From the sequence record PQ671644.1: a DNA stretch of 64,000 nucleotides; one strand, written 5' to 3'. A program made the translations under genes and the position numbers. This document shows positions 40,854-57,706 of this stretch, in pieces; position 1 is the first letter of the stretch, and each line of letters begins with the position of its first letter. Under the pieces are notes generated by a model. That model saw only the letters and a program-made list of their open reading frames with translations. It made no database searches and was not told the DNA's origin. This stretch comes from Escherichia phage DCP80.

Positions 40854-40910
40854 ATTTTCACCTCAAAGACATCTTAACACACTTTTTGTGGCTTGTACAT
40901 AATAAAAAGG

Positions 40911-40928
40911 TCTCCCGAAGGAGACCAA
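40911..40928. terminator. Terminator hairpin GGTCTCCCGAAGGAGACC
   Basis: Inverted copy at 42992. Confidence 0.6.
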
Positions 40929-40983
40929 ATTTTATTCTACTTTATAGACTTGACCATACGCCATGAAAGTTTCACCTTCCCAG

Positions 40984-41040
40984 GTTTCGCACGNNNNNNN
41001 NNNNNNNNNNNNNNNNNNNNNNNNNNNNNNNNNNNNNNNN
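40984..41040. other. Assembly gap (N57), scaffold joint
   Basis: N-run; removes 5' end of gene 39. Confidence 0.9.
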
Positions 41041-41044
41041 ATTC

Positions 41045-42793
41045 TTGTTTGGTGAATATAAGTCCGTAAGCTATGTTCCTGGTATTGTAAAACTGATTGA
41101 TGAAATTATCGATAACTCTGTTGATGAAGCAATTCGCACCAGTTTTAAATTCGCCAATAAAATTGATGTTCAAATTAAAGGCAATAAGGTTATCGTTGAA
41201 GATAACGGACGCGGTATTCCACAAGCAATGGTTGTCGACCAGACCGGTGAACAAATACCTGGCCCTGTCGCGGCATGGACTATTCCAAAGGCCGGTGGCA
41301 ACTTCGGTGATGATGCTGAGCGTAAAACTGGCGGGATGAATGGCGTTGGTAGTAGTTTAACCAACATCTTCTCTGTAACATTTGCGGGTGCAACTTGTGA
41401 TGGTGAGAATGAAATTGTCGTACGTTGTTCTAACGGAATGGAAAATAAGAGCTGGAATAAAGTTCCCGCTTCGAAGAAAGAACATGTGAAGGCTAAGACT
41501 GGTACGGTTGTTTCCTTTATTCCCGAATTCAGCCATTTTGAAACTAATGGACTCGACGAGACTTATGACGCCATCACATTGGACCGTCTACAGACTCTTG
41601 CGGTTGTTTATCCGGATATTCAGTTTACCTTTAATGGCAAAAAGGTTGATGGTAACTTCAAGAAGTTCGCCAAGCAATTTGGAACCGAAGTTGTTATCCA
41701 GGAAACTGATACGGTATCGATGGCCTTTACGACTAGCCCGGATGGTTTCCGTCAGTTGACTTATGTCAACAACATTCATACAAAGAATGGCGGACACCAC
41801 GTTGAATGTGTTATGGATGATATCTGTGAACATCTTCAACCAGCCATTAAACGCAAATATAAAGGCATCGAGGTGACCAAGGCACGAGTTAAAGAATGTC
41901 TCACCATGCTTATGTTCATCCGCGATATGAGCAACATGCGATTTGATTCCCAGACCAAAGAGCGATTGACTTCTCCGGCTGGTGAAATTCGAAATCACAT
42001 TAAGATTGATGCTAAGAAAATCGCGCAAGCTATTCTGAAAAATGAACCGCTGATTATGCCGATTGTTGAAGCTGCATTAGCCCGTAAATTGGCTGCAGAA
42101 AAAGCAGCAGAGACTAAAGCGAATAAGAAAGCTTCGAAGGCTAAGGTACAAAAGCATATCAAAGCCAACGAATGGGGTAACGACAAACTTGAAACGACTC
42201 TATTCCTGACCGAAGGGGATTCTGCAACGGGTCCATTTATCAAGGTTCGCGACCGTGAATTGCAAGGTGCTTATCCATTACGTGGTAAGTTTAAAAACAC
42301 ATGGGGTCTGAAAGCTGTTGACGTTATGAAGAACGCTGAAGCCTTTGATGTGTGTGCAATTACTGGGTTAACGATTGGACAACCGGCCAAGAATATGAAT
42401 TACCGAAACATTGCTATCATGACAGATGCGGATGTGGATGGTGTCGGTAGTATCTATCCATCGTTATTGGCGTTTTTCAGTAACTGGCCAGAGCTGTTCC
42501 ATGAAGGACGAATTCGCTTTGTGAAAACTCCTGTTATTATTGCGCAGCTCAAAGACAAACAAGAATGGTTCTATTCTCTTCCTGACTATGAAGAAGCTAA
42601 GGATAAACTTCCGAAGCACACCATCCGATATATCAAGGGGCTTGGTTCTCTGGAAGATTCCGAGTATAAACGCGTATTGCTCGAACCAGTATTCGAAGTT
42701 GTCCAATTGCCTGATAACTGGAAAGAACTGTTCGAAATGTTATTCGGTAAAGATTCACAACAGCGTAAAGATTGGATGAATGCGACGCTATAA
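41045..42793 (+). CDS. 39: DNA topoisomerase II large subunit (GyrB-like), gene 39 with gene 60 region fused; 5' end missing
   Basis: VPGIVKLIDEIIDNSVDEAIRT, EDNGRGIP and GGMNGVGSS ATPase motifs; TOPRIM MTDADVDG; C-terminus continuous. Confidence 0.85.
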   Translation: MFGEYKSVSYVPGIVKLIDEIIDNSVDEAIRTSFKFANKIDVQIKGNKVIVEDNGRGIPQAMVVDQTGEQIPGPVAAWTIPKAGGNFGDDAERKTGGMNGVGSSLTNIFSVTFAGATCDGENEIVVRCSNGMENKSWNKVPASKKEHVKAKTGTVVSFIPEFSHFETNGLDETYDAITLDRLQTLAVVYPDIQFTFNGKKVDGNFKKFAKQFGTEVVIQETDTVSMAFTTSPDGFRQLTYVNNIHTKNGGHHVECVMDDICEHLQPAIKRKYKGIEVTKARVKECLTMLMFIRDMSNMRFDSQTKERLTSPAGEIRNHIKIDAKKIAQAILKNEPLIMPIVEAALARKLAAEKAAETKANKKASKAKVQKHIKANEWGNDKLETTLFLTEGDSATGPFIKVRDRELQGAYPLRGKFKNTWGLKAVDVMKNAEAFDVCAITGLTIGQPAKNMNYRNIAIMTDADVDGVGSIYPSLLAFFSNWPELFHEGRIRFVKTPVIIAQLKDKQEWFYSLPDYEEAKDKLPKHTIRYIKGLGSLEDSEYKRVLLEPVFEVVQLPDNWKELFEMLFGKDSQQRKDWMNATL

Positions 42794-42796
42794 ATA
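42789..42796 (+). promoter_or_regulatory. TATAAATA late-type promoter
   Basis: GCTATAAATAG after gene 39 stop, before SD AGGAGA. Confidence 0.4.
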
Positions 42797-42991
42797 GATG
42801 TGGGAGAATATTCTCCCGCTACTAGGAGACAATATGACTAAATACTGGATTACACTCGCTACCGGTGAATATGGTTTTCTCTGGGCAGAGAAAAAGCCTT
42901 TGTTTGCAGAATTTGTAACAATCACGTGCGAAACCTGGGAAGGTGAAACTTTCATGGCGTATGGTCAAGTCTATAAAGTAGAATAAAATTT

Positions 42992-43014
42992 GGTCTCCTT
43001 CGGGAGACCTTTTT
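42992..43014 (+). terminator. Rho-independent terminator
   Basis: GGTCTCCTTCGGGAGACC plus TTTTTATT. Confidence 0.7.
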
Positions 43015-43064
43015 ATTATGTACAAGCCACAAAAATTGTGTTAAGATGTCTTTGAGGTGAAAAT

Positions 43065-43349
43065 ATGATTATGTCTGACGGAAGTTTAGTTAATCTGCAG
43101 AATGTCGCACGGTGTATTATGGAAGCAGGCCTGAGGAAGGTACAGGAGCTCCCAGATAGCGACAGGAAGCGAAGTTACTTGTTAGCTGTAAGAACAGCAG
43201 CCATGAGCATTAAGGCTGGCCAGAAGGTCCCTGAGGAGCGAATTGAAGCACTTCTTGCATTGATATACCATGACCAAGAACATAAAGCTACCATGCGTAG
43301 TATGAGAAAAATATTACAGGAGATTGGAAATGACGAACTTCAAAGTTAA
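43065..43349 (+). CDS. Hypothetical protein (homolog of 40569..40853)
   Basis: 94 aa, 4 substitutions versus arm 1. Confidence 0.4.
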   Translation: MIMSDGSLVNLQNVARCIMEAGLRKVQELPDSDRKRSYLLAVRTAAMSIKAGQKVPEERIEALLALIYHDQEHKATMRSMRKILQEIGNDELQS

Positions 43350-43533
43350 TATGGAGCTGTTTGATAAAGCTGTTCATAAAGAATACCGCGTTATCCAACG
43401 ATTTTTTGATATAAGAGAAGCTGAAGAGTTTAAAGAACGCTTCAAAGAAATCCGTATTAAAATAGCTTCAGACACCGCAACAAAGGATGAACTTCTTGAA
43501 GTTGCAGAATTAATCAAACGTAACATAAAGTGA
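43324..43533 (+). CDS. Hypothetical protein (homolog of 40385..40594)
   Basis: 69 aa. Confidence 0.4.
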   Translation: MEMTNFKVNMELFDKAVHKEYRVIQRFFDIREAEEFKERFKEIRIKIASDTATKDELLEVAELIKRNIK

Positions 43534-43540
43534 GAAAAAC

Positions 43541-45775
43541 ATGATTTTAGAAACTGAAAAGGAAACAATCCTTGGTAATGGTGCCAAGGCATCAGCATTC
43601 ACAATCCAGGCATCTCCAAAGGTGTTTAAGATTCTGACCAGCGACCTTTATACAAACAAGGTGCGCGCGGTTGTTCGTGAGCTGATTACCAATATGATTG
43701 ATGCTCATATGCTCAATGGCTGTCAGGATAAATTCATTGTTCAAGCTCCTGGTGAACTGGACCCACGTTTTGTGTGTCGTGACTTTGGTCCAGGTATGAG
43801 TGATTTCCAGATTCGTGGTGATGAAAATACGCCAGGTCTGTATAACAGTTTCTTTGCATCATCCAAGGCTGAATCCAATGATTTTATTGGTGGCTTCGGC
43901 TTGGGTTCTAAATCTCCGTTTAGTTATACAGAGACGTTTAGCCTGATTTCATATCATGATGGACAAGTTAATGGTTATGTCGCTTATATGGACGGTGATG
44001 GTCCACAGATTAAGCCAACCTTTAGCGAACCAATGAAACCTGGTGACCGCACAGGGATTGAAGTTGTTGTCCCGGTTGATAGTAATGATTTCGGTAAGTT
44101 CCGTTATGAGATTGCATATATCATGCGTCCATTTGCTGGACTGGCTGAAGTGCAAGGCGTAGGCGAAATTAATTACTTCCCAGAATTTGATGATTATTAT
44201 GCTCCAGCGCGTATTAATTATAGCAGTCCAGAACGTTATGGACTTTATGCAATTTATGGTGGAATTGTTTATCCGATTGGTGATGGTTACACCAAGAAAA
44301 CCTGGATGACTGCCAAAAATGATGTTGTCTTTATTAAGTTCCCAATGGGTTCGCTGGATATTGCACCTTCTCGCGAAGCGTTATCACTGGACAAACGTAC
44401 GGTCGCAAATATCGTTGAACGTATTGAAGCCCTTGATAAGAAAGTCATGGAAGATGATTGTAAGAAATGGCAGGAATCAGAATGTCTCCGCCATACATAT
44501 CGCGAATTGCAGAATCTGAATTATGAAGCTCGTAATTTTCTGAAAGCTCGTAATGTTGAAACGAAATTTACGAAATCACAATTGACCTTTAACCAGATGT
44601 ACGAAATGTTCGAGCTGGACAAAGACCTTATTAATGCCGGGGTTGTCTATGATATCTATCGCGATACTCGTCTGAAACGTCTGCGTAACGCAAGCTCAAG
44701 CTCGAACACGGCAAGTCTGACGCGCATGTTTGGTATTCAGACTGATACCTTGAACATTGTTATTGATGATGCTAAAGGGCGAATTGCGATGATTCGTGGT
44801 ATCAGTTCAATGTTGTATGATACCAGCGCGAAAGCTAAAAAGCTTATTGCATCTGGTAAAGTCCCGACTCGTCAGGGTAGTAGTTTACTGTTTGTTGACC
44901 CAACCAGCGAAATTCAAACACGGTTGATGGTTCAACTCCAGGAACGATTTAAAGGCGATACGGTTAATATCTATCGTACGTCTGAACTGACTGCCCTTGT
45001 AAAAGACTGGATTCCGGTTGCTGACCCGAAAGCGCGCGTTAAGTCAAAGACTCCATCATTGATTCGTTGGACTAAAACTAATGGTCGCTGGCAGTCTGTT
45101 GAAGAATTTACATGTGCAGCTGATGCAGAGGAAATCGATGGTTATGCTGTATTCATTAACCGCAGTAGCATTTCCCCGTTGAATCAAGAATACGGCACCA
45201 CGACCTTCGGGACCCAGACATTGTGTAAACTGGCAAACCTGTTGGAAATCAATGAATTCTGTGTTATTCGTCCACAGCTTCAGAAAAAGGTTACCAAGCT
45301 GGCGCAGTGCGATTGTCTGATTGAAGCTGCAGTCAATCGTTATGTGGAATTGATTGATGCGGTTGATGCGGACCAGTACATTGCCGCTTCAAGCCGTTCG
45401 CGTTATTATATTCCTATCCTGTCTGAATATGCAGAACTGAATTTTATGTTCAAGTATTTTTATGCAAAAGATGTTCAGAAAGATGTGAATACTGACTATG
45501 CCGAACTAATGCAGTTCAATAAGTTCTTTGCTTATAACGCATATAACAGTGGAACAGTTGATAAGACCATGCAGGAAACATTGGTCCTTTGTAATAAGAT
45601 TTATGACGACCTGACCAAAAACGCTTCGGTAACAAGCGATAAAATGGTTTTTGAATTTGAAAAGAATCACCCGATTGTTTCACACTTTTTATATAACCGT
45701 AACGCTATGTCAACTGAACAAGTACAGAACGTTGCTCAAATCATGAAGGCCGTGGAAGCGGCCAATAAGGAATAA
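43541..45775 (+). CDS. rIIA: rIIA protein (second copy)
   Basis: 744 aa, about 8 substitutions versus 38143..40377. Confidence 0.9.
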   Translation: MILETEKETILGNGAKASAFTIQASPKVFKILTSDLYTNKVRAVVRELITNMIDAHMLNGCQDKFIVQAPGELDPRFVCRDFGPGMSDFQIRGDENTPGLYNSFFASSKAESNDFIGGFGLGSKSPFSYTETFSLISYHDGQVNGYVAYMDGDGPQIKPTFSEPMKPGDRTGIEVVVPVDSNDFGKFRYEIAYIMRPFAGLAEVQGVGEINYFPEFDDYYAPARINYSSPERYGLYAIYGGIVYPIGDGYTKKTWMTAKNDVVFIKFPMGSLDIAPSREALSLDKRTVANIVERIEALDKKVMEDDCKKWQESECLRHTYRELQNLNYEARNFLKARNVETKFTKSQLTFNQMYEMFELDKDLINAGVVYDIYRDTRLKRLRNASSSSNTASLTRMFGIQTDTLNIVIDDAKGRIAMIRGISSMLYDTSAKAKKLIASGKVPTRQGSSLLFVDPTSEIQTRLMVQLQERFKGDTVNIYRTSELTALVKDWIPVADPKARVKSKTPSLIRWTKTNGRWQSVEEFTCAADAEEIDGYAVFINRSSISPLNQEYGTTTFGTQTLCKLANLLEINEFCVIRPQLQKKVTKLAQCDCLIEAAVNRYVELIDAVDADQYIAASSRSRYYIPILSEYAELNFMFKYFYAKDVQKDVNTDYAELMQFNKFFAYNAYNSGTVDKTMQETLVLCNKIYDDLTKNASVTSDKMVFEFEKNHPIVSHFLYNRNAMSTEQVQNVAQIMKAVEAANKE

Positions 45776-45776
45776 T

Positions 45777-46754
45777 ATGTTTAATATCAAATGTATGTCT
45801 AAAGCCGAACAAGAACGAGTTGTCTCTCTTTATGAATCTGGTAACTATACGCAAGACGAACTTGCACTCGGTTTCGGCGTTTCGGTTGACACCATTCGTC
45901 GCGTTTTGAAAAATGACAAAGAATCAAAATTAGCTAAAACCATTTCTGCATCACTGAAAGCCGCTGTCGGGGTGGCGATTAATGCTCCAGTGACAGTAAC
46001 AGTTGAAGCCCCGGTTGAAGCCACAATCGGTGGAAGCCGCCCGGAAATCGTATGGAATGCATCAAGTAAATTCGTTTCCATTACTGAAGGTCGTACAGTC
46101 TGGAATGCAACAAAAGACCATAAACACTTTGATGATATTATTCAGGCACTCAAAGAATCTCGTTTTGATGATGCTATTGAGTATATCTCAATCAAAGCTG
46201 CAGTACAAAAATATGTGAAAGGCGATGTGCGTATTGAAGGTGGTAGTCTGTTCTATCAGGGAATTGAACTGCGCTCTGGCCTGGTTACTCGTATCATTGA
46301 TTCAATGCAAAATGGCGAAGACTTTGAATTCTATCTGCCATTCCTTGAGAATCTCCTTGAGAACCCGAGTGAGAAAGCCGTACAGCGTTTGTTTGACTTC
46401 CTGGTTGCGAACGATATCGAAATCACCGAAGACGGCCATTTCATCGCATGGAAAATGGTTCGTGCAACCTACAAAGATTGTCACTCAAACACATTCGACA
46501 ACAGCCCTGGCCAATATGTTAAAATGCCACGCTCTCGTGTGAATGACAATGACGAACAAACTTGTTCGACTGGTCTGCACGTTTGCTCTAAAGGCTATAT
46601 CGGAAGTGGTTTTGGTCATGGTGATGGACGCATCGTATCCTGTAAAGTTCACCCGCGTGATGTTGTAAGTATCCCGGTGGATTATTCCGATAGTAAGATG
46701 AGGGTTTGCGGTTACCTGGTTCTTGAAGATGTGACCGAACGTTTCAATGATTAA
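45777..46754 (+). CDS. rIIB: rIIB protein (second copy)
   Basis: 325 aa; N-terminal ~90 aa diverged from arm 1, remainder near identical. Confidence 0.85.
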   Translation: MFNIKCMSKAEQERVVSLYESGNYTQDELALGFGVSVDTIRRVLKNDKESKLAKTISASLKAAVGVAINAPVTVTVEAPVEATIGGSRPEIVWNASSKFVSITEGRTVWNATKDHKHFDDIIQALKESRFDDAIEYISIKAAVQKYVKGDVRIEGGSLFYQGIELRSGLVTRIIDSMQNGEDFEFYLPFLENLLENPSEKAVQRLFDFLVANDIEITEDGHFIAWKMVRATYKDCHSNTFDNSPGQYVKMPRSRVNDNDEQTCSTGLHVCSKGYIGSGFGHGDGRIVSCKVHPRDVVSIPVDYSDSKMRVCGYLVLEDVTERFND

Positions 46755-47238
46755 ACAAACAATTGCTAAAGATGGCTCGGCTCGTGGTATTGTCCACGGG
46801 CTAGGTCACACGCCTGAATACATTGTATGGATTGGCATGAAAGCTCGGTGTTGCAATCCAACACATATTAGTTATTCTCGATATGGCGGTCGGGGTATCA
46901 CTGTTTGCGATGAATGGCTGCATGATTTTGAAAGATTTTATACAGATATGGGGCCACGACCCACTGACAAACATCAACTTGACCGAACAGATAACGATAA
47001 AGGGTACTCTCCCGATAACTGCAGATGGGTTAGTCCAGGCGAGAATGCTTTAAATAAGCGCCCGTATAATAACAACAAGTCTGGATTTAAAGGAGTCTCG
47101 TTTGATAAACGAGCTTTGAATAAACCATGGCGAGCCACTATTATGCGAAATAAAAAACAAATTCAAGTCGGAGCTTTTGCAACTCCAGAAGAAGCAAATG
47201 AAGCTCGATTAAAATATATGGAAGAACACAATGTCTAA
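46747..47238 (+). CDS. HNH homing endonuclease with AP2-like DNA-binding domain
   Basis: GGRGITVCDEW...LDRTDNDKGYSPDNCRWV then KSGFKGVSF...WRA; absent from equivalent site in arm 1. Confidence 0.7.
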   Translation: MIKQTIAKDGSARGIVHGLGHTPEYIVWIGMKARCCNPTHISYSRYGGRGITVCDEWLHDFERFYTDMGPRPTDKHQLDRTDNDKGYSPDNCRWVSPGENALNKRPYNNNKSGFKGVSFDKRALNKPWRATIMRNKKQIQVGAFATPEEANEARLKYMEEHNV

Positions 47239-47440
47239 AGAAATGTTAGGTTTCCAAGCACGTGTAGTTGAAGAACATGACCAGCTGGTTTTGAAAATTA
47301 ATGCTCTTGAAGAATTTATTAAGGGCGGAGTTTTTGAAACTCTCGATGCTCGTCAACAAGGTCTTTTGATTGCCCAGTTAGATGCAATGGGTGCATATGC
47401 TCATATACTGGCAACTCGTATCTCTTATTTTGGTGAATAA
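47231..47440 (+). CDS. Hypothetical protein (homolog of 36936..37133)
   Basis: 69 aa. Confidence 0.4.
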   Translation: MSKEMLGFQARVVEEHDQLVLKINALEEFIKGGVFETLDARQQGLLIAQLDAMGAYAHILATRISYFGE

Positions 47441-47443
47441 ATT

Positions 47444-47713
47444 ATGATTAAGCATTTCAATGTGTCAGACCGTGACATCAAAGTTTCAAATCTCCGGGGT
47501 CATCATTATGCGGGAATAGTTTACTGCGGTAAGCTCATCAAGCATGAAGGTGATGTTCACTATGGTTGGTTGGAATGTGATGAAGTAGTTGTTGGGGAAT
47601 TCCCTGACCCGAATTCTGATACATTTGATGCTAATGACCGTTTGTATTATGGCGAGCTTCACATCCGTGGAATCGTCGGTATCGATGAGGTCGTAAATGA
47701 TTCAGAAGAGTAA
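47444..47713 (+). CDS. Hypothetical protein (homolog of 36663..36932)
   Basis: 89 aa. Confidence 0.4.
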   Translation: MIKHFNVSDRDIKVSNLRGHHYAGIVYCGKLIKHEGDVHYGWLECDEVVVGEFPDPNSDTFDANDRLYYGELHIRGIVGIDEVVNDSEE

Positions 47714-48290
47714 AACCTGGGAGCATTTGAAAAAGATGCCCTCCTTTCTTTATACGAAGGAAGACTTAACCCCCGAATCCCTACAAAAGATTGTAGACAC
47801 TGCCAGATATTCATTGCGTAAAGACCCAGGTCAGGACCGTGAGCAAGTCATGCAAAGATGTATGGTGGCCACAATGGCTGAACAAGCTATTGCTAAATGG
47901 ACCTCCGGTTTTTTATGTGGCGGTGATGAAGATTACGATAATCCTTATTCCTTTGCATTTGATGTAGTTTCGAAGGAAGGGGTGAGAATCGAAGTCAAGA
48001 CCCACCAGTCTGGGTCCAAATGGATATCCGTGCATACTGGCCACCAGGGCGATTATCCACATGGTTACGGGATTAATCTTGGTCCTTTTATGCAACACAA
48101 GCTTGCTGACCTTATGATTATGCTCGATGTAAAAGAGACTCTCAAAGGTTATAGATTTAAACCAAAATTCCTTGCTGGACCCGGTGCTTTCGTTCCTGAG
48201 TCTGGTCTTGTGCAGAAGTCACAAGGGGATGGCTGGTACCTCCGTTCTTGTTCAGAAGAAAAATTTCCCTATCACCGGTTTACAAGCTGA
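47697..48290 (+). CDS. denB: Endonuclease IV DenB-like (second copy)
   Basis: 197 aa, near identical to 36086..36679. Confidence 0.6.
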   Translation: MIQKSKTWEHLKKMPSFLYTKEDLTPESLQKIVDTARYSLRKDPGQDREQVMQRCMVATMAEQAIAKWTSGFLCGGDEDYDNPYSFAFDVVSKEGVRIEVKTHQSGSKWISVHTGHQGDYPHGYGINLGPFMQHKLADLMIMLDVKETLKGYRFKPKFLAGPGAFVPESGLVQKSQGDGWYLRSCSEEKFPYHRFTS

Positions 48291-48337
48291 ACCAACTGTG
48301 TAATAATGTCCTCATACCAACAAATAAGGACATTATC

Positions 48338-48613
48338 ATGGAACACGTTACTACTCACAACATCAAACAAATTCTTATCCAAGCACTCAAAAACAACAAC
48401 ATCAATTTTCCAACCCATGAAATTTTTGATGTGGTATTCAACGAAGTCCAGGGTCAAGTTGCATATTATGACGTTATCGTTTATCTTTCAGAATTTGAAG
48501 TCTACCATCTGACTGAAATTGCTTTCTATCTCTATCGTGGGACTGCAGATTTTACTGGGGTCGTGAATGCAGTTGGCGCATATAAAGAAGTTAAAGAGCA
48601 AATGCACAATTAA
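48338..48613 (+). CDS. Hypothetical protein (homolog of 35763..36038)
   Basis: Start at MEHVTTH. Confidence 0.4.
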   Translation: MEHVTTHNIKQILIQALKNNNINFPTHEIFDVVFNEVQGQVAYYDVIVYLSEFEVYHLTEIAFYLYRGTADFTGVVNAVGAYKEVKEQMHN

Positions 48614-48688
48614 TTAAAAAGTAGTGTACATCAGTATGGAGTCAGTGCATAATGATTCCATACTGAGTTACCAACCTGGAGAAACAAA

Positions 48689-48952
48689 ATGAAATTTAAA
48701 TTTTATTATATTAAGCATAAAGTTACTGGGGAGTTTATTGCATTTACAACTTCATCCAATAATCAAGGTGATACTTTTACTTCATTGTTCTTATCTAGAT
48801 GGGATTCAGACCAGCCTTATTTGTCCACAAAAGAGCATCTTCAACGTATGGCGAAGGGCGAGCTAAACGATTCTTGGGATAATATTGTGAATAATTGTAT
48901 CAAGAAAGCTATCCAAGAAAATCAACTTGAAATCATTGAGGTGGAATTGTGA
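48689..48952 (+). CDS. Hypothetical protein, paralog family member present only in arm 2
   Basis: MKFKFYYIKHKVTG; arm 1 has an unrelated 51-aa ORF here. Confidence 0.4.
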   Translation: MKFKFYYIKHKVTGEFIAFTTSSNNQGDTFTSLFLSRWDSDQPYLSTKEHLQRMAKGELNDSWDNIVNNCIKKAIQENQLEIIEVEL

Positions 48953-49215
48953 ATATTAAATTATATTACGCCAAGCACAAAGTTACAGGTATGGTTGTTG
49001 CTGCTATGTATGACGCGTCAGGCGATGGTGATGATGTTATTACAGAGTTATCTCTTTCTGATTGTAAATTTCTTCGCCCGTTGGTTGCATCAAAGCGTGA
49101 TTTAAAAAAGCTTATTGATGGTAAGCTGGACAATATTGATGGTATAGATATTTTTTATGACCTCCGCGTCGCATTGTCTGATGGATTGATTGAAATCAAA
49201 GAGGTGATATTTTGA
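48949..49215 (+). CDS. Hypothetical protein (homolog of 35252..35518)
   Basis: 88 aa. Confidence 0.4.
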   Translation: MNIKLYYAKHKVTGMVVAAMYDASGDGDDVITELSLSDCKFLRPLVASKRDLKKLIDGKLDNIDGIDIFYDLRVALSDGLIEIKEVIF

Positions 49216-49486
49216 GCAGCAAAACCTGGTGTCTTATCTGGATGTTGTGTATCCCAGTAATTTGCGTTTGTTTTAGTTTATTATTAATGAAACTTGCATA
49301 AAGAGTGTACATCTCCGGTGGTTGTAGTATAATGAACCTATCAACTACTGGAGATGATTATGAAAAAGTTACTTAAAGCCATTTGGAACATGTTTATACT
49401 GTTTGTTGTCCTGAGCATTTTCCCAATTGTTTTTATGATTGACCATGTACGTGTTTACTTTAACTATTTCTTTTGAGGATAATACT

Positions 49487-49633
49487 ATGATAGTTATGAA
49501 AAAGTTTAAAGAATATCATTGCTATGAATGTGGCAAAAAGATTGATTCTATTCATTCATTAAACGTCTTTTCTTTTGATAATTTAAACTATGCACACATT
49601 TGGTGCCTTCGTGGAATGACTAAATTTAACTGA
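49487..49633 (+). CDS. Small Cys/His-containing protein, possible zinc ribbon, arm 2 only
   Basis: HCYECGKK...HIWC spacing; absent from arm 1. Confidence 0.3.
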   Translation: MIVMKKFKEYHCYECGKKIDSIHSLNVFSFDNLNYAHIWCLRGMTKFN

Positions 49634-49790
49634 GGATAATATTATGAATTACAATTCACACTTTCAGAAATCCAATCGCCGCTTTGACTTTATGTTCAAG
49701 TTTATTGTGGCAATGATTATCCTGATTTTCATTGGTGCCATTGCAATGATTGGTTTCCAGGTCTGGATTGCTGCTGAAGTATTCACACAA

Positions 49791-49800
49791 NNNNNNNNNN
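49791..49800. other. Assembly gap (N10), scaffold joint
   Basis: N-run; truncates arm 2. Confidence 0.9.
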
Positions 49801-49831
49801 TTTACAATTGAGTTAACTCCCAAGGATTAAT

Positions 49832-50143
49832 ATGCAAGCTCCAGATATTTCTCAACTGACCGATAAGCAGATTGAAGAAGCACAGGAACGTCTCGAAGAA
49901 GCGAACGCACTTGAAGCACGCAGTCAAGCAGCGAAGATTCTGAAAAAGAATGCTCGTGAAATTGCACGACTGAATAAGCATGCTCAAGGGGCAGTGCTGG
50001 AAAACAATTTTGAAGCATACAAATATGCTTTAGTTAAACTGCGTGGAATTTACCGCCAACCAGTTACGGAAGACCTGATTAAGTTGATGTGGGAAACTAC
50101 TCGCAAACAAATTTGGGAAATCGTAAATGGCATTAGTAAATAA
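49832..50143 (+). CDS. Hypothetical coiled-coil protein
   Basis: 103-aa ORF. Confidence 0.4.
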   Translation: MQAPDISQLTDKQIEEAQERLEEANALEARSQAAKILKKNAREIARLNKHAQGAVLENNFEAYKYALVKLRGIYRQPVTEDLIKLMWETTRKQIWEIVNGISK

Positions 50144-50554
50144 ACCGTTTAAGCGGCTTCGTGTAGGGGCCGCTTTCAGATTTCGCTCATATGGTGATAT
50201 CTGTATCAAGCAGACCGAAACCGAATGTAAGCTCCTTGGCCCTTATGGTGTTCCAAAAGGTATTGTTAAAATTGAGCCGACATCCAAAGTTTGGGTGGAT
50301 TCACACCAACTTAAGAAATGGTGGCAACGATGATAACATGGACAGCAGGCTAATGAAAGACGAATACGAAAAAGTTTAAGAGGTTGTATGAATGACGAAT
50401 TCGATGGATTTTGATAAGATTAAATCTGACAAAAATGAGATGTTGCTTAAATTTGAAGCCGCTCGTATTAAAGCAGAAAATGAAGGTACTATTACCTATA
50501 AGCCTATCAAGTTCAGGTCTTCTCATGAACCTCTGTATGGTGTATTAATTGGAA

Positions 50555-50577
50555 AGGAAGCCTAGTGCTTCCTTTTT
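50555..50577 (+). terminator. Rho-independent terminator
   Basis: GGAAGCCTAGTGCTTCC plus TTTTTT. Confidence 0.65.
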
Positions 50578-50762
50578 TGCTTTATATTCGGGATGATAAA
50601 ATGAACCAACTGAGGAGAACATATGGAATTATTTTTAGGATATGTCGTGCTATTCATGGCATTCTATACATTCACACGAGCTTGTTGGATAGGATTCTTT
50701 TCCACTCCTGACGGGTTCATTTCAATAATTTTATTTTGCATTGCGATAACGGTGCTTGGCTT

Positions 50763-51782
50763 ATGAAAATTTTAAATTTAGGTGATTGGCACTTGGGTGT
50801 CAAAGCTGACGACCCATGGGCTCAAAACATTCAACGCGATGGTATTTTACAGGCGATTGCGTATTCCAAAGCGAATGGGATTAAAGTCTGGATTCAATAT
50901 GGCGATATTTTTGACGTCCGTAAGGCCGTAACGCATAAGACGATGGAATTCAGCCGTGAGATTATGGAACTCCTTCGTGAAGCAGGAATTACTATGCACA
51001 CGATAGTCGGGAACCATGACATGAATCTGAAGAATAAGATTCATCCTAATGCTATCACTGAACTCCTGAATAAGTATGACCATGTTAAAATCTACGACAA
51101 GCCAACGACTGTTGATTTTGACGGTTGTCAGATTGATATGATTCCATGGATGTGTGACGAGAACGCAACTGACATTCACCAACATATCAAAACTTCTGGT
51201 GCTGAATATTGCATCGGTCACTGGGAATTAACCGGGTTTTATTTCTATAAAGGATTGAAATCCCACGGACTTGAGCCTGATTTCCTTAAGAAGTACAAGC
51301 AAGTTTGGTCTGGTCACTTCCACACAATTTCAGAAGCTGCGAACGTTAAGTACATAGGAACACCATGGACATTAACAGCAGGTGATGAGAACGACCCACG
51401 CGGGTTCTGGGAATTTGATACCGAAACCGAAGAGATGAAATTTATTCCGAATGAAACCACCTGGCATCGGAAGATTTTTTATCCAAACGAAACTATTAAC
51501 TACGACGACTTCAAAGACTTATCAGTCCGTGTTATTGTAGAAAAAGTCGATAAAGACCTGACCAAGTTCGAATCCGAATTAGAAAAGCGTGTGCATGAAT
51601 TGCGTGTTGTCAATAAGGTTGATAACAGTGTTGATACGACTGACTCCGAAGAAGAGTTAGACATAAAACGCTTAACTGATATGATGGCAGAATATATTGA
51701 TGCATTACCTGACACCAATGAGAAAGAATCAAAAGCTCTTAAAGCATTGGCCAACAAATTATATCTTGAGGTGCAACCGTGA
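50763..51782 (+). CDS. 47: Recombination endonuclease subunit gp47 (Mre11-like)
   Basis: MKILNLGDWHLGVKADD, YGDIFDVRKA, GNHD and GHFH phosphoesterase motifs match T4 gp47; start moved to MKIL. Confidence 0.85.
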   Translation: MKILNLGDWHLGVKADDPWAQNIQRDGILQAIAYSKANGIKVWIQYGDIFDVRKAVTHKTMEFSREIMELLREAGITMHTIVGNHDMNLKNKIHPNAITELLNKYDHVKIYDKPTTVDFDGCQIDMIPWMCDENATDIHQHIKTSGAEYCIGHWELTGFYFYKGLKSHGLEPDFLKKYKQVWSGHFHTISEAANVKYIGTPWTLTAGDENDPRGFWEFDTETEEMKFIPNETTWHRKIFYPNETINYDDFKDLSVRVIVEKVDKDLTKFESELEKRVHELRVVNKVDNSVDTTDSEEELDIKRLTDMMAEYIDALPDTNEKESKALKALANKLYLEVQP

Positions 51783-52042
51783 AACTTTATGATTTTAATG
51801 AAGCGGGGCTTGAACATATCCGCGAATGTGATGTGGTTGACGACGATAATCAACCGAATACTATTAAGTATTGGTTTGAAGCTATCACTGACCGGGAAAC
51901 CGGTCAACTTATCAAAGTCTATGTAGTCACCGATTGGGCCGTAGAATTTAGTTTTAATGTAATGGAAGATGATACTCCAGAAACATTAATTCATATGGCT
52001 GAATCATGCATCAAGGATGCTTATAATGATGAAAATGTATAA
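51779..52042 (+). CDS. Hypothetical protein
   Basis: 87-aa ORF. Confidence 0.4.
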   Translation: MKLYDFNEAGLEHIRECDVVDDDNQPNTIKYWFEAITDRETGQLIKVYVVTDWAVEFSFNVMEDDTPETLIHMAESCIKDAYNDENV

Positions 52043-52241
52043 ACATGATTTTCATATTGGCGATGGCTGGTTCGGTAATGTAGAATGGGACGTGGATGGT
52101 TCTTGGTATACCGGAACTATGTATGTCACTTCTGAATATTCTGAAGGTGTTTCATGGGCCATGGAACTTGACGACGTGTTTGCTTCTTCCGAAGAAATGC
52201 TAGAATATGCTGAACAAACAATTCGTGAGAACAATACATGA
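52017..52241 (+). CDS. Hypothetical protein
   Basis: 74-aa ORF. Confidence 0.35.
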   Translation: MLIMMKMYKHDFHIGDGWFGNVEWDVDGSWYTGTMYVTSEYSEGVSWAMELDDVFASSEEMLEYAEQTIRENNT

Positions 52242-53920
52242 AAACGTTTAAGCTAAAGAAAGTAACGTATAAAAATATTATGTCTGTAGGCCAGCAGCCT
52301 ATTACAATCCAACTTGATAAGGTCCAAAAGACCTTAGTCACTGGTAAAAATGGCGCTGGTAAATCGACATTCCTTGAAGCTGTTACTTTTGCTTTATTTG
52401 GTAAGCCTTTTCGTGATGTTAAGAAAGGGCAATTAATTAACTCAAGTAACAAGAAAGACCTTTTGGTCGAACTGTGGATGGAATATGATGGAAAAGAATA
52501 CTATATCAAGCGCGGGCAAAAACCCAACGTTTTTGAAATCTCTTGTGGCGGTGAACGTCTTGATGAATCTGCCAGCAGTAAAGACTTCCAAGCGGAATTT
52601 GAACAGCTCATCGGAATGTCCTATGCGAGCTTCAAACAGATTGTCGTACTCGGCACAGCTGGATATACCCCTTTTATGGGCCTATCCACTCCTGCAAGAA
52701 GAAAACTTGTCGAAGACCTTTTAGAGGTTTCTGTACTGGCCGATATGGATAAGCTGAACAAATCTCTTATCCGTGAAGTCAATAGTCAAATCCAGGTGAT
52801 GGATGTGCAGCATGACGGGATTGTTCAACAGATTAAAATCTATCAGGACAACGAAGACCGTCAAAGAAAATTATCAGGCGATAATCTGTTGCGACTGCAA
52901 ACGATGTATGATGAACTTGCCACAGAAGCACGTGGAATCAAGGCAACTATCGAAGAAGCAACGACAAGACTGACCGAGATAATCTTGGGAGAAGACCCTG
53001 AGCACGAACTCACAAAGTTAAAGCAGGAATCATTCCTGATTAAATCGAAGATTGACGATTATCGAAAGGTTGTTGGTCTGTACGAGAAAGGTGGTTGTTG
53101 TCAGACCTGTGCTAGTCAGTTGCATCCAGGAGACCCTATTGTCGCCAGGATTGAGTCAAAGATTGAAGAATGTAATGCATCGGCTGATAAGCATAAAGCT
53201 CGCCAGAATGCTGTTCAGGAGCAATTTGATGCGTATACCAAGGCAAGACAAAACCAGCGTACAATAGCTCAAGACATTCAAACCAAGAAACAAACCTTAG
53301 TCCAGACTGTCGAAAAAGCTAAAAAGGTTAAAGCATTAATCGAGCAAGCCAAGTCAGAATTCATCGACCATGCAGCAGACATTAAAATGCTTCAAGACCA
53401 GCTTGATAAAATAGTCAAACAGAAATCTGACCTTGTGATGGAAAAATATCAACGTGGCATCCTAACGGATATGTTGAAAGATTCCGGTATCAAAGGTGCG
53501 ATTATTAAGAAATATATTCCTATCTTTAATAAGCAGATAAACGCTTACCTTAAAGTTATGGAAGCTGATTATAGTTTTACGTTAGATGAAGAGTTCAACG
53601 AAACGATTAAATCTCGTGGACGTGAAGACTTCAGCTATGCATCATTTAGCCAGGGTGAAAAAGCTCGTATCGATATTGCATTGCTGTTTACATGGCGTGA
53701 TATTGCTGCGAAAGTATCTGGTGTTAATATTAACACCTTGATTCTGGATGAAGTTTTTGACTCGGCCACCGATGTAGAGGGTGTTAAAGCAATTGCTACC
53801 ATCCTGAACAAATTGGAAGACACCAACATCTTTATTATCAGTCACCGAGACCATGACCCGGAAGCATACGGGCAACATCTCCAGATGAAAAAAGTTGGTC
53901 GATTCACTGTTATGGAATAA
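52238..53920 (+). CDS. 46: Recombination ATPase gp46 (Rad50/SbcC-like)
   Basis: Walker A TGKNGAGKST, central coiled coil with CxxC hook (CCQTC), signature SQGEKARIDIA and Walker B LILDEVFD. Confidence 0.85.
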   Translation: MKTFKLKKVTYKNIMSVGQQPITIQLDKVQKTLVTGKNGAGKSTFLEAVTFALFGKPFRDVKKGQLINSSNKKDLLVELWMEYDGKEYYIKRGQKPNVFEISCGGERLDESASSKDFQAEFEQLIGMSYASFKQIVVLGTAGYTPFMGLSTPARRKLVEDLLEVSVLADMDKLNKSLIREVNSQIQVMDVQHDGIVQQIKIYQDNEDRQRKLSGDNLLRLQTMYDELATEARGIKATIEEATTRLTEIILGEDPEHELTKLKQESFLIKSKIDDYRKVVGLYEKGGCCQTCASQLHPGDPIVARIESKIEECNASADKHKARQNAVQEQFDAYTKARQNQRTIAQDIQTKKQTLVQTVEKAKKVKALIEQAKSEFIDHAADIKMLQDQLDKIVKQKSDLVMEKYQRGILTDMLKDSGIKGAIIKKYIPIFNKQINAYLKVMEADYSFTLDEEFNETIKSRGREDFSYASFSQGEKARIDIALLFTWRDIAAKVSGVNINTLILDEVFDSATDVEGVKAIATILNKLEDTNIFIISHRDHDPEAYGQHLQMKKVGRFTVME

Positions 53921-53954
53921 TGCTTTAAACAAGGATGTTATAATAGAGGCTATT

Positions 53955-54146
53955 ATGGCTGACTTCTTAACCGGGCAGCATTTACTGGCTGTCCCTGAAA
54001 TTAAACGGTATGTGTTAGTTAATACCTTTTCGAAAGATGAACACCTTGTTACTGAACGTGACTTACAAAACGCTTTCGGTGAAGAATATGTTAAAATAAT
54101 CGCGAACAGACACAATGCCTGGTTCGCATATGAATACTTTGATTAA
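53955..54146 (+). CDS. Hypothetical protein
   Basis: Start at MADFLTGQ. Confidence 0.35.
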   Translation: MADFLTGQHLLAVPEIKRYVLVNTFSKDEHLVTERDLQNAFGEEYVKIIANRHNAWFAYEYFD

Positions 54147-54578
54147 TTGATAATGAATAGAGAGAATATTATGAACAACGTAACTGCTAAAGATATCCAA
54201 GTTAAAACCATCCGCACCGACGCTAACCCACATAACCAAAACCGCATCCGCAAATCCTGGGTCCTGGCGTGTGATGAAGTATCTGCCACCCGTCTGCAGT
54301 CTCTGCCGCAAGAAGTTAAATTCATGTTGTATGGTGTTATCGATACTGATGTATCTGATAAGTGGATTGAACTGATGCAACGTCATTACAACGATTCACT
54401 GGCTGCTGGTGCTAAACTGGTTATCGACCGTGACGGTTCCGAACGTCTTGAAGATGATTACTGTGTTAACTCTGACGACCATCTGGTGCAAGCTGGTTCT
54501 ATTATTGCTGCGCAACTTCCAGAGTATATTGAATCTCTTCCGGAAGCTATCCACAAACAAATGGCAGTTGTTGCTTAA
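54147..54578 (+). CDS. Hypothetical protein at T4 rpbA position
   Basis: 143 aa between 46 and 45; assignment positional only. Confidence 0.35.
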   Translation: MIMNRENIMNNVTAKDIQVKTIRTDANPHNQNRIRKSWVLACDEVSATRLQSLPQEVKFMLYGVIDTDVSDKWIELMQRHYNDSLAAGAKLVIDRDGSERLEDDYCVNSDDHLVQAGSIIAAQLPEYIESLPEAIHKQMAVVA

Positions 54579-54608
54579 TTAATTTTGATTTGAATAAAAG
54601 GTAATTAA

Positions 54609-55304
54609 ATGAAATTCTCTAAAGACACTATCGCAGTTTTGAAAAACTTCACCTCCATCTACTCTGGCATTATGCTTAAACCAGGCAATACCATCCTGAC
54701 TCGTTCTGTAACTGGAGCGTCATATGGCGAATCCGAAATCAATGATACAATTGACTTTGAAGCTGCGATTTATGACCTGAACGGCTTCTTAAGTATCCTG
54801 GGCCTGGTAACTGACCAAGCTGAAGTATCTCTGGCTGAAGACGCATCAAATATCATTATCAAAGACCAACGTTCAACGATTCACTGGCCTGCGGCTGACC
54901 CGAGCACTATCGTGTTCCCTGCTAAGAAGATTCCTTTCCCGGTAGCTAAGGTTATCTTCGACCTGAAAGGCAGTGACCTGCAGCAGCTTCTGCGTGTGGC
55001 TGGTGGTTTGTCTCTGGACACTTTTGCAATCACCAACAAAGACGGTAAGATTGTTATCCATGGTTATAACCAGCTCGAAGATAAAGAATTAGCGCGTCCA
55101 TTGTATTCCCTGGTGTGTGGTGATTACGAAGGCGATGCAGCGTTTAAATTTATCATTAACAAACTGAACATGAAAATGATTCCGGCTGATTACCGTGTTA
55201 TGCTTTGGGCAAAAGATGATAAATTTGCTACGAAGTTTGAAGGCACACAAGCAAGCTATGTGATTGCAATGGAACAAGGCTCTAGCCACGAATTCCAAGA
55301 TTAA
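54609..55304 (+). CDS. 45: Sliding clamp gp45
   Basis: MKFSKDT.AVLKNF....SGIMLK, AIYDLNGFL, WPAADPST and QQLLRV match T4 gp45. Confidence 0.85.
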   Translation: MKFSKDTIAVLKNFTSIYSGIMLKPGNTILTRSVTGASYGESEINDTIDFEAAIYDLNGFLSILGLVTDQAEVSLAEDASNIIIKDQRSTIHWPAADPSTIVFPAKKIPFPVAKVIFDLKGSDLQQLLRVAGGLSLDTFAITNKDGKIVIHGYNQLEDKELARPLYSLVCGDYEGDAAFKFIINKLNMKMIPADYRVMLWAKDDKFATKFEGTQASYVIAMEQGSSHEFQD

Positions 55305-55309
55305 TAAAT

Positions 55310-55323
55310 GGGGCTTCGGCCCC
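55310..55323 (+). terminator. Terminator-type hairpin GGGGCTTCGGCCCC
   Basis: Directly after gene 45 stop. Confidence 0.55.
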
Positions 55324-55360
55324 ATGGAGTACAAAGTAGAAACTAATATGAGGAAAATAT

Positions 55361-56320
55361 ATGTTAACGGTTAATGACAAAGAATTCATGTGGGAACAAA
55401 AATACCGCCCAGGTACATTATCAGAGTGTATTCTCCCGGCTCATGATAAAGAAACATTAGAGGCGATTGTTAAAAAAGGTTTGATTCCTAACTTGATTCT
55501 GGTCAGTAGTTCCCCTGGTACTGGTAAGACAACAGTTGCAAAAGCTATGTGCGCAGATACGAATTCTGATATGCTGTTTGTTAACGGCTCCGATTGCCGA
55601 ATTGACTTTGTGCGTAATGAATTGACTCGCTTTGCATCATCCAAATCAATCGAAGGTCGCCGTAAGGTAATTGTTATCGATGAGTTCGACCGTGCAGGTC
55701 TGGCAGAATCACAACGGCATCTTCGTAGCTTTATGGAAGCTTATTCAAGCAACTGTTCAATCATTATGACCGCGAACAATATTGATGGCATCATCACTCC
55801 GTTGCAGTCTCGTTGTCGCGTCATTAAGTTTGGTGAAGCAACTCCGGCTGACCAGACTACCATGATGAAAGAGATGATTCATCGTGCAGTCGCGATATGT
55901 AAAAACGAAGGCGTTGAAATCGAAGACCTGAAAGTTGTTGCTGCTTTGGTTAAGCATAACTTCCCGGACCTGCGTAAGACAATTAATGAGCTTGACCGTT
56001 ACTCTGCAAAGGGTGTTATCGATTCCGGTATTCTAAGCATCGTGACAAACAATCGCACGCCAATTGATGATGTGATTGATGCCCTTAAGGACCGTAACTT
56101 TAAAGTTCTCCGTGGTCTGGCTCCTAAGCATGCAAATGATTATTCAAGCTTCATTGCAAAGCTGGCTGATGAAATGTATGGCAAACTGACTGGTGCAAGT
56201 ATTATCCGCATGTATGAGATTGTAGGTGAGAATAATCAGTATCATGGCATTGCAGCCAATACCGAAGTTCACTTGACTTATCTGTTTGCTCAACTGGCTG
56301 GGGAAATGAAATGGCTGTAA
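55361..56320 (+). CDS. 44: Clamp loader large subunit gp44 (AAA+)
   Basis: EQKYRP, Walker A SPGTGKTT, DEFDR and SRC motifs. Confidence 0.85.
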   Translation: MLTVNDKEFMWEQKYRPGTLSECILPAHDKETLEAIVKKGLIPNLILVSSSPGTGKTTVAKAMCADTNSDMLFVNGSDCRIDFVRNELTRFASSKSIEGRRKVIVIDEFDRAGLAESQRHLRSFMEAYSSNCSIIMTANNIDGIITPLQSRCRVIKFGEATPADQTTMMKEMIHRAVAICKNEGVEIEDLKVVAALVKHNFPDLRKTINELDRYSAKGVIDSGILSIVTNNRTPIDDVIDALKDRNFKVLRGLAPKHANDYSSFIAKLADEMYGKLTGASIIRMYEIVGENNQYHGIAANTEVHLTYLFAQLAGEMKWL

Positions 56321-56742
56321 GTCTCTTTGATGATGACGTTCAATTAAACGAACATGAGGTTGCGTGGAAATCACGCGACTTTAACAAAATTCAGGAATTG
56401 TCCGATTCATACAAAGAGAAAGCAGAAAATGAATTGTTCGCGATTCTTAACGACATAACCGTTAGCAAAAAACCACGGAACCTGATTCAATCGGAAAACT
56501 ACAATAAATTCTGGCTGGACAATGCCTTGAGTCAACATGTCGATTGCATCATGCAGGTGAACGTGATGAACTTAATCGGTTCTGGATTAACAGACCAACA
56601 GCATTATAATTATTTGCTGCATGCGGTTCCACAAGGCAAGCGTTATGGCAAATGGGCGAAGGCTGAACCGGATGTAGTCAGCGTCCAGCTTGTGTTAAAG
56701 CTTTTGATGAAATATTATACAATTAATGCAGATGATGCTTTG
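56311..56742 (+). CDS. 62: Clamp loader small subunit gp62, 3' end lost at gap
   Basis: LFDDDVQLNEHEVAW...KEKAENE...NLIGSGL...VPQGKRYGKWAK matches T4 gp62; downstream of N-run is unrelated. Confidence 0.7.
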
Positions 56743-56760
56743 NNNNNNNNNNNNNNNNNN
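56743..56760. other. Assembly gap (N18), scaffold joint
   Basis: N-run; T4 synteny and strand break here. Confidence 0.9.
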
Positions 56761-56911
56761 ACGAATCTGACGTTTAGTCGGTCGCGCAACGTAAGCTTGT
56801 GTAGTTACTCGTCCAAAAACACCATACTTAGGCGAAGGAGTATCAATAAAGACTTCCCACTGGCAAGAGTAGCTATATATTGCTTTAGAGAATTGGGTCA
56901 AAACAAACATA

Positions 56912-57271
56912 TTAACCTCGCTTCATGAAGGCATTAAAAATCTGGTCATCAATATCAGTAGGCGGTTCTTGAGCTTTGACCCAAGCCCCTTCCAGAATGT
57001 CATTCGCTTCAGTAGATAACATGACCCCAATTTCGGGGTTTCCCGTTATCCAGGCGGCGCAATCACGTACATTCTTTTTATCAAATGGATAGCCACGAGT
57101 ATCTTCATAAGGTCCATTCATTACCAGGAATGAGCGAGCCTTTATGATAATATCATCTTTAACGATAATATAACCAATCGCTTGATTAAACTGAGGGTCG
57201 CGGAATTCATAATGAGCATTACCATCATTATTGCTCGCCAGTTCAAAATTCAGAAAATTGTAATCATTCAT
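56912..57271 (-). CDS. Hypothetical protein
   Basis: 119 aa; C-terminal DDQIFNAFMKR shared with next gene. Confidence 0.4.
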   Translation of the reverse strand: MNDYNFLNFELASNNDGNAHYEFRDPQFNQAIGYIIVKDDIIIKARSFLVMNGPYEDTRGYPFDKKNVRDCAAWITGNPEIGVMLSTEANDILEGAWVKAQEPPTDIDDQIFNAFMKRG

Positions 57272-57272
57272 A

Positions 57273-57706
57273 TTAATCTCGCTTCATGAAGGCATTAAAA
57301 ATCTGGTCGTCAACTGAATATACAGGGGTTTCCAGAAGTTTCAAAAGACTGTTTTTGATGTACTTACCCGGGATACCCTTAACAATACTGTCATTCAACT
57401 CATTATCAGGGTTGATGTCTTTAAATTCAAACCCGTCAAACTCAACCTTGTCAGGAATACCGTCAGCGAAAAAATAAACCAATTGGTGCATTGTATTGCG
57501 CGAAAATAATTTAGACTTGACCGCAATAAGTTCTTGCCAATGGTTTAATTCTTTGTTAAGAAGTTTATGAGCAAACGTAATTCTATTATCACTATCAACA
57601 AGAAAATAACCCAGGTATTGAATCTCGTCGCTCCAAAACACCCTGTATGCCTGCGCATTTGGATTTTTACAACGAAGTTTTTTGATAACCAAATTTCTGT
57701 TAATCA
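57273..57706 (-). CDS. Hypothetical protein
   Basis: Start moved to MINRNL after SD AGGTGA (track ORF extends to 57842). Confidence 0.4.

Follow-up and report, generated by a model that had tools for sequence, protein, structure and literature searches.

Two versions of the denB-ndd locus

The window, which is the whole stretch of 64,000 nucleotides that was analysed, contains two versions of one phage locus, carried by the segments c2 and c3 (Table 1). The locus is the gene 39 - rIIA - rIIB - denB - ndd region of a T4-type coliphage similar to VR7, SP18, and phage 212. Segment c2 encodes rIIA.1, rIIA, rIIB, a denB.1-like gene, a DUF7418 gene, denB, ORFs of 91, 51, and 88 amino acids, an ndd.4-like ORF, and a DUF7248 gene, followed by an ndd.1-like ORF, a 114-aa ORF, ndd, gene 52, and motA. 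Segment c3 starts with a 5'-truncated gene 39 and continues with rIIA.1, rIIA, rIIB, an HNH endonuclease ORF, the denB.1-like gene, the DUF7418 gene, denB, and ORFs of 91, 87, and 88 amino acids, after which the ndd.4-like ORF, a 48-aa ORF, and a 3'-truncated DUF7248 gene complete the segment. The genes rIIA.1, rIIA (744 aa), rIIB, the denB.1-like gene, the DUF7418 gene, denB, and small ORFs are thus common to both copies, where they lie in opposite orientations. A 582-aa ORF with a TTG start codon at positions 41041-42793 on the plus strand is an artefact of the contig start, and corresponds to gene 39 without its first 101 nt. Gene 39 encodes the large subunit of topoisomerase II, which is annotated with 617 residues in phage 212 and with 609-610 residues in other relatives.

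A repeat search of the 28-56 kb part of the window identified an inverted match between positions 34833-40993 and 42925-49790, with lengths of about 6.2 and 6.9 kb, which is composed of six blocks with identities of 91-99%. Pairwise BLAST of the two copies agreed with the repeat search. Three segments within the match are replaced or extra, and are located after rIIB, after the 91-aa ORF, and after the ndd.4-like ORF. The differing segments are unrelated to each other in sequence, and each contains an intact ORF that recurs in other phages, which rules out frameshift artefacts as the cause of the differences, so that the interpretation of replaced segments stands.

Table 1. Positions of the segments, joins, ORFs, repeats, and promoter elements in the window
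Feature	Position	Strand	Remarks
Segment 1	1-30710		No match in phage 212
Contig c2 (arm 1)	30721-40993	-	Bounded by N runs; phage 212 47394-36660 as reverse complement
51-aa ORF	35529-35684	-	In c2, same slot as the 87-aa ORF; no family match
47-nt N padding	40994-41040	.	Join between records; flanks at 36660 and 34776 of phage 212, oppositely oriented
Contig c3 (arm 2)	41041-49790	+	Collinear with phage 212 34776-43222 (forward), 95.8% identity; match stops at 49489
163-aa HNH(-AP2) ORF, putative free-standing endonuclease	46747-47238	+	c3 only; phrog_374, E 8e-59
PeSL-like element 1	48612-48688	+	c2 copy 35685-35762, minus strand; conserved in both contigs and all related loci
87-aa ORF	48689-48952	+	phrog_2390; paralogous to the following 88-aa ORF; slot has four alternative states
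88-aa ORF	48949-49215	+	phrog_2390; shared by both contigs (c2: 35252-35518, minus strand); its first codons are the right edge of the swap
PeSL-like element 2	49296-49353	+	Upstream of the ndd.4-like ORF 49354-49476; c2 core 35132-35162, minus strand
Left 17-nt direct repeat TGAGGATAATACTATGA	49474-49490	+	Stop codon, SD, ATG; family D8
48-aa CxxC...HxxC ORF	49487-49633	+	phrog_25572; absent from c2
Right 17-nt direct repeat TGAGGATAATATTATGA	49631-49647	+	c2: single copy 34976-34992, minus strand
10-nt N padding	49791-49800	.	Following segment maps about 32 kb from the c3 end in the reference
Segment 4	49801-56742		Phage 212 4309-11266, forward; gene 47/46/45 region
Segment 5	56761-62886		Phage 212 22586-16112, reverse complement
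Segment 6	62941-64000		Phage 212 63499-62727, reverse complement

The slot after the 91-aa gene has alternative occupants

The segment between the 91-aa and 88-aa genes is replaced, and comprises positions 48695-48949 in c3 and 35518-35678 in c2. The ORF that occupies it in c3 had been described in the original prediction as an extra paralog, and the 87-aa and 88-aa proteins are indeed 34% identical (E 9e-14), with both matching phrog_2390 from end to end (E 1e-37 and 6e-35, respectively). The 51-aa ORF of c2 does not align to the 87-aa ORF and is therefore unrelated to it, as had been proposed, with the predicted coordinates displaced by 3 nt. In the PHROGs database the small ORFs match only families of unknown function, and Pfam contains no family for the 87-, 88-, 51-, 48-, and 91-aa ORFs.

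The exact 87-aa protein is encoded on 19 contigs from other samples, and in the ten that were displayed it is always at the same position of a single-copy locus. The exact 51-aa protein occurs in 112 blocks of the collection, including the complete genomes of phages TH55, UPEC01, RZ, and MN01, and has the same position in the places displayed. Near-identical copies of the 51-aa ORF are present in 15 phage records. The 51-aa ORFan also has a homolog with 53% identity in Escherichia phage C1 (NC_054651), the 46.7-kb genome of which is far too small for a T4-type phage, and this suggests that the gene was transferred between unrelated phage groups.

The 87-aa and 51-aa ORFs represent two of four states of the slot, which may also contain a 71-aa ORF (locus L024; surveyed loci are denoted by L numbers) or be empty (L023 and L025). 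All four states are located between the same Shine-Dalgarno (SD) sequence with ATG and the start of the 88-aa gene. The states diverge from the SD and ATG onward, and the promoter and stem-loop upstream are conserved in all of them. The 51- and 71-aa states rejoin the common sequence at the junction TGAGGAAAAnAnAATG at the start of the 88-aa gene, and the 87-aa state rejoins it at an overlapping GTGA at the same start. No promoter element separates the 87- or 51-aa ORF from the 88-aa gene.

The 48-aa ORF is bracketed by a direct repeat

The 48-aa ORF of c3 contains Cys12, Cys15, His37, and Cys40, and alignment of the two copies confirmed that this Cys/His-rich ORF is missing from c2, as had been noticed in the original prediction. 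The extra unit with the ORF has a length of 157 nt when one copy of the flanking repeat is counted. On both sides, the ORF is flanked by copies of a 17-nt direct repeat, TGAGGATAATAYTATGA, with the structure of a stop-SD-ATG junction and the pattern TGAGGATAATA(C/T)TATGA. The two repeat copies match in 16 of 17 positions in c3, and form a perfect 16-nt repeat around the same ORF in L018, L022, and L024. These three loci, of which L022 is that of phage MN01, and phage VR26 contain near-identical copies of the 48-aa ORF. In the eight loci in which DUF7248 directly follows the ndd.4-like ORF, there is a single copy of the repeat, and in four loci a third, different ORF is located after the same junction. 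The 48-aa ORF has no promoter of its own; the nearest promoter element lies about 140 nt upstream, with one ORF in between.

The interval from the ndd.4-like to the ndd.1-like ORF constitutes a second slot with multiple states (L005-L025), which begins after the invariant junction TGAGGATAATATTATG. The junction is followed by DUF7248, by the CxxC-containing 48-aa ORF and DUF7248, or by a different ORF starting with MGNRIYK. Another, unrelated 48-aa ORF is called near this slot in phage 212, L005, and other loci.

An HNH endonuclease ORF is inserted after rIIB

The third difference between the two copies is located after rIIB, where c3 has 502 nt containing the HNH ORF, whereas c2 has a GC-rich hairpin spacer of 41 nt (37134-37174, minus strand). 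The C-terminal match of the ORF to AP2 is weak, with 21.9 bits compared to the Pfam cutoff of 33.3. The ORF is present in c3, L008, L022 (MN01), and phage 212, and is absent from the other loci that span the site. The HNH domain, the intergenic insertion, and the presence or absence among relatives are features of free-standing homing endonucleases, to which the product of the ORF probably belongs. The start of the HNH ORF overlaps with the stop codon of rIIB. Where the ORF is present, the last codons of rIIB are different and the denB.1-like gene is longer by four codons.

Repeated promoter and stem-loop elements

The ORFs of the locus are accompanied by repeated elements that resemble the promoter/stem-loop cassettes (PeSLs) of T4-type phages. 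Element 1 comprises, in this order, an upstream stop codon in an AT-rich stretch, a -35 box TGTACA, a 17-nt spacer, a -10 box CATAAT, the SD sequence GGAG, and an ATG, so that positions 48612-48654 read TAATTAAAAAGTAG-TGTACA-N17-CATAAT. The -10 box is enclosed in a 14-bp stem-loop with a predicted folding energy of -24.3 kcal/mol (z = -4.95). Element 2 contains TGTACA-N16-TATAAT at positions 49306-49333 and has a folding energy of -26.2 kcal/mol (z = -5.2), and a third copy of the element at positions 31690-31770 has a weaker stem-loop (z = -1.9). The core AGTGTACA-N16/17-YATAATG has seven matches in the window compared to zero expected, all of them in the T4-like contigs and on the coding strand. 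Four copies of the element are located in c2 within about 4 kb, from denB to motA, each preceding a small ORF on the coding strand. A generic sigma-70 scan of the sequence did not identify any enrichment over shuffled sequences (11 matches compared to 10.2), and the specific repeated motif alone is significant.

The combination of a predicted early promoter, a stem-loop, and repetition upstream of ORFans, with the SD and start codon at the end, makes it probable that the elements belong to the PeSL class. In the published model, the SD and start codon form the 3' end of the PeSL, and most differential ORFans adjoin a PeSL (PMC2839356). In the exchange model of Arbiol et al. from 2010, a differential ORF has a PeSL on both sides, and the empty allele retains one, chimeric PeSL. 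Flanking of this kind was not found among the swapped units of the locus: the slot with the 87-, 51-, or 71-aa ORF has a PeSL on the left side only, and the 48-aa ORF has a PeSL at neither edge.

The window is composed of separate contigs

The window contains five runs of N, at positions 30711-30720, 40994-41040, 49791-49800, 56743-56760, and 62887-62940. All five end on multiples of 60 (30720, 41040, 49800, 56760, and 62940), for which the probability by chance is about (1/60)^5. The N runs are evidently joins between separate records, each of which was padded with N to fill a 60-base line of the FASTA file. The closest complete genome, that of Escherichia phage 212 (PQ765507, 171,007 bp), was used as a reference for mapping, and the segments between the N runs match scattered positions of this genome in different orientations (Table 1). 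Furthermore, the lengths of the segments descend from at least 30710 nt to 10273, 8750, 6942, and 6126 nt, as in the output of an assembler. The positions of the N-run ends, the scattered mapping, and the length order together indicate that the window is a concatenation. The five N runs divide it into at least six independent contigs in order of descending length.

Short N runs can in principle be masks over real sequence, which would make the window one continuous molecule and the inverted repeat genuine. This is the only point in favour of such a reading, to which we assign a negligible probability. The flanks of the N runs map to distant or unrelated positions of the reference in differing orientations, and gene 39 lacks its first 101 nt, for which the gap of 47 nt is too small. 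The mapping to phage 212, together with the ends of all the N runs on multiples of 60, led us to reject masks over continuous DNA.

The ends of the inverted repeat abut the N runs 40994-41040 and 49791-49800 on both sides. The original prediction had regarded c2 and c3 as two rII arms of one molecule, but the arms are separate contigs, and the N runs at the ends of the repeat are joins of records. The placement of c2 and c3 side by side and head to head results in a false inverted repeat, which is a product of the order and orientation in which the contigs were written out. Features that span the N runs are artefacts, including the rII inverted repeat and the apparent divergent layout around gene 39.

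The first segment of the window encodes a terminase, a portal protein, a protease-capsid fusion protein, a tape measure protein of 804 residues, and a J-type tail fibre protein of 1266 residues. It has zero nucleotide matches among 50,697 phage records, and its terminase shares about 30% identity with those of the nearest sequenced phages, Ralstonia phiRSP and Wolbachia WO. The segment is a contig of an unrelated phage or prophage, and it may represent a poorly sampled phage lineage. The presence of an unrelated phage in the same assembly indicates that the sample was mixed.

The two versions of the locus probably originate from two strains

Read in gene orientation, c2 begins with 111 nt that match positions 42925-43035 of c3 without a difference, and the very next base is a mismatch. 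Similarly, c3 ends with 111 nt that are shared unchanged with c2, just after the last mismatch at position 49679. Identical overhangs of this length are the signature of a branch in a de Bruijn graph, from which we infer a k-mer size near 111. As in other strain-variant de Bruijn branches, the two contigs overlap the shared sequence by exactly 111 nt, with the left flank retained in c3 and the right flank in c2. The pattern is compatible with a strain bubble, and also with a tandem duplication in one genome.

In the latter case, one phage genome would carry two diverged copies of the rIIA.1-rIIA-rIIB-denB region, in tandem or inverted, the assembler would have broken the sequence at the repeat, and the differences in cassettes would have arisen within the genome. 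Two versions of the locus are present in one assembly, c3 has a normal left flank (gene 39) and c2 a normal right flank (ndd, gene 52, and motA), as a tandem arrangement predicts, and the boundary of a repeat would also generate the identical overhangs of 111 nt. Nevertheless, we regard the duplication as very improbable. None of the 143 phage records with matches to the 16.5-kb query covers at least 80% of it in one place, so that this architecture is found in none of the related records. The cassette ORFs are single-copy in essentially every record: the 87-, 51-, and 48-aa ORFs are each found at one position in a given record, and of the 620 records matching the 87-aa ORF only one is an exception. 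No uninterrupted sequence joins both copies and their unique flanks, and the sequences flanking the N runs are contiguous in no relative. The inverted adjacency of the copies stems from the N padding and the length-ordered concatenation, and the unrelated phage in the same assembly points to a mixed sample. T4 packages its DNA by a headful mechanism, and an additional 6.9 kb would exceed the usual terminal redundancy, which also counts against the duplication.

The relationships of the two copies to loci from other samples provide additional evidence against a common origin within one genome. In all four segments that were compared, c2 and c3 are each nearer to loci of other samples than to each other, which argues that they are not duplicates of one another. 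The rIIB gene of c2 is 97.5% identical to that of L005, but only 91% identical to that of c3. In the stretch from the 88-aa to the ndd.4-like ORF, c3 shares 98.9% identity with L011 and c2 shares 98.3% with L020, compared to 93.7% between c2 and c3. There are 33 mismatches between c2 and c3 in the first 150 nt of rIIB and zero in the preceding 150 nt. Such patchy divergence is expected of two mosaics from one population. A sharp mosaic boundary is located at the junction of rIIA and rIIB (45775-46071 on the plus strand and about 37846-38141 on the minus strand), where the 5' end of rIIB is far more diverged than the 3' end of rIIA. A genome that acquired a second, diverged rIIA.1-rIIA-rIIB-denB region from a relative and kept it, with different accessory cassettes in each copy, is a variant of the duplication that we also consider highly improbable.

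We conclude with high confidence that the window consists of independently assembled contigs, that c2 and c3 represent the same locus in two assembled forms, which most likely derive from two strains present together in the sample, and that the differences between the two forms are genuine and allelic, within the denB-ndd hyperplastic region. The swaps that the original prediction had placed between two arms of one genome are therefore differences between separate contigs.

Proposed exchange of cassettes at short repeated junctions

The variability of the locus was surveyed in 18 loci identified through the exact 87- and 51-aa proteins, three loci identified through denB in IMG/VR, and phage 212. 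The cassettes assort freely across the 21 other loci, c2, c3, and phage 212. Cassettes of the c2 and c3 types occur in all combinations in the 21 other loci, which are single-copy; for example, phage MN01 (L022) combines the HNH, 51-aa, and 48-aa ORFs. The junction motif TGAGGAWAAYAWWATG, with one mismatch allowed, has ten matches compared to 0.06 expected, and marks most of the gene boundaries in the stretch.

In our reading, small early ORFs of the denB-ndd hyperplastic region are gained, lost, or replaced as ORF-precise cassettes. The points of exchange are the short repeated junctions composed of a stop codon, an SD sequence, an A/T spacer, and an ATG, and the left junction of the slot after the 91-aa gene is the 3' end of a PeSL-type promoter/stem-loop. 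The cassettes could be moved or deleted by recombination of co-infecting relatives within the homologous flanks, by slippage between the repeats, or by recombination at their short homology. Each cassette would keep a working ribosome-binding site and would be transcribed from the early promoter upstream. We infer the involvement of recombination from the anatomy of the breakpoints. The SD-ATG junctions are alike for functional reasons, and their position at the cassette edges could therefore result from selection for viable products, and not from recombination at these bases.

In the classical form of PeSL-mediated shuffling, recombination between two flanking promoter/stem-loop cassettes excises or inserts ORFs, possibly via mini-circles. 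The repeated PeSL-like elements with stable stem-loops, which are seven compared to zero expected, and the element directly preceding the first swap are in agreement with this process, and in the published model the SD and start codon belong to the 3' end of the PeSL, and most differential ORFans adjoin such an element (PMC2839356). However, neither of the swapped units has two flanking PeSLs. The promoter and stem-loop of the first slot are conserved in its four states, which diverge from the SD and ATG only, and the right edge of this slot, before the 88-aa gene, has no promoter element. The 48-aa ORF, which lacks its own promoter, is bracketed by the 17-nt stop-SD-ATG repeats instead. We therefore consider shuffling between pairs of PeSLs unlikely, and favour exchange at the stop-SD-ATG junctions.

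The original prediction was thus partly right about the kind of process, wrong about its setting, and imprecise about the breakpoints. It had placed the swaps beside early-promoter cassettes, which is correct for the exchange of the 87- and 51-aa ORFs directly downstream of element 1, but the breakpoints are outside the promoters and the 48-aa ORF is separated from the nearest one. The repeated regulatory elements to which it attributed the shuffling exist as a promoter/stem-loop family; the edges of the exchanged units, however, are the stop-SD-ATG junctions.

Relation to known phages

Insertions, deletions, and replacements of small early ORFans next to PeSLs in hyperplastic regions have been described in closely related T4-type genomes (Arbiol et al. 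2010, PMC2839356; Comeau et al. 2014, PMC4122927). The interval from denB to ndd in the window is a classical hyperplastic region of this kind, with four elements within about 4 kb, one of which adjoins a swap. It differs from the described system in that the breakpoints are at the SD-ATG end of an element or at promoter-less stop-SD-ATG junctions, and in the absence of bracketing by two PeSLs. The -35 box TGTACA differs from TTGACA in RB49 and phi1, and is nearer to the TTTACW form of the PST/T4 pair (PMC4122927).

The VR7/SP18-like coliphages 212 (PQ765507), MN01 (MT129652), TH55 (MT446421), UPEC01 (MW233709), VR26 (KP007362), and fDHCT2 (OR427838) contain the same locus with 92-96% nucleotide identity, and encode the same cassette ORFs with 98-100% protein identity, annotated as hypothetical. 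Unlike the window, they have one copy of the locus per genome. Segment c3 is collinear with phage 212 as far as position 49489. Look-ups of exact proteins found no record of the c2 and c3 rIIA proteins, and the exact combinations of cassettes are likewise not on record. Scans of viral, genome, and metagenome contigs for exact sequence patterns of the window gave no match. The neighbourhood corresponds to the denB-ndd region of T4 (denB.1 and ndd.1 to ndd.6), and homologs of denB.1, ndd.4, ndd.2a, and ndd.1 are present here. In contrast, the family of the 87- and 88-aa ORFs, the 91-, 51-, 48-, and 114-aa ORFs, and DUF7418 are missing from T4, in which ndd.5 and ndd.6 are present instead.

Implications for T4-type phages

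Because the window is a concatenation of contigs, interpretations that treat it as one molecule, such as an rII inverted repeat, divergent arms, or a central gene 39, are invalid. Both versions of the locus are single-copy in many VR7/SP18-like coliphages and metagenome contigs, in every combination, which makes it most likely that the swaps are polymorphisms between strains in the denB-ndd hyperplastic region. The phenomenon has already been described, and every cassette is present in GenBank phages as a hypothetical protein. The locus nevertheless provides a clean example of an ORF-precise cassette polymorphism between closely related T4-type phages, which probably co-occurred in a single sample. 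The positions of the breakpoints at a repeated stop-SD-ATG junction of 16-17 nt rather than at promoters, in genes and arrangements that are already in GenBank, are a slight refinement of the published picture of PeSLs.
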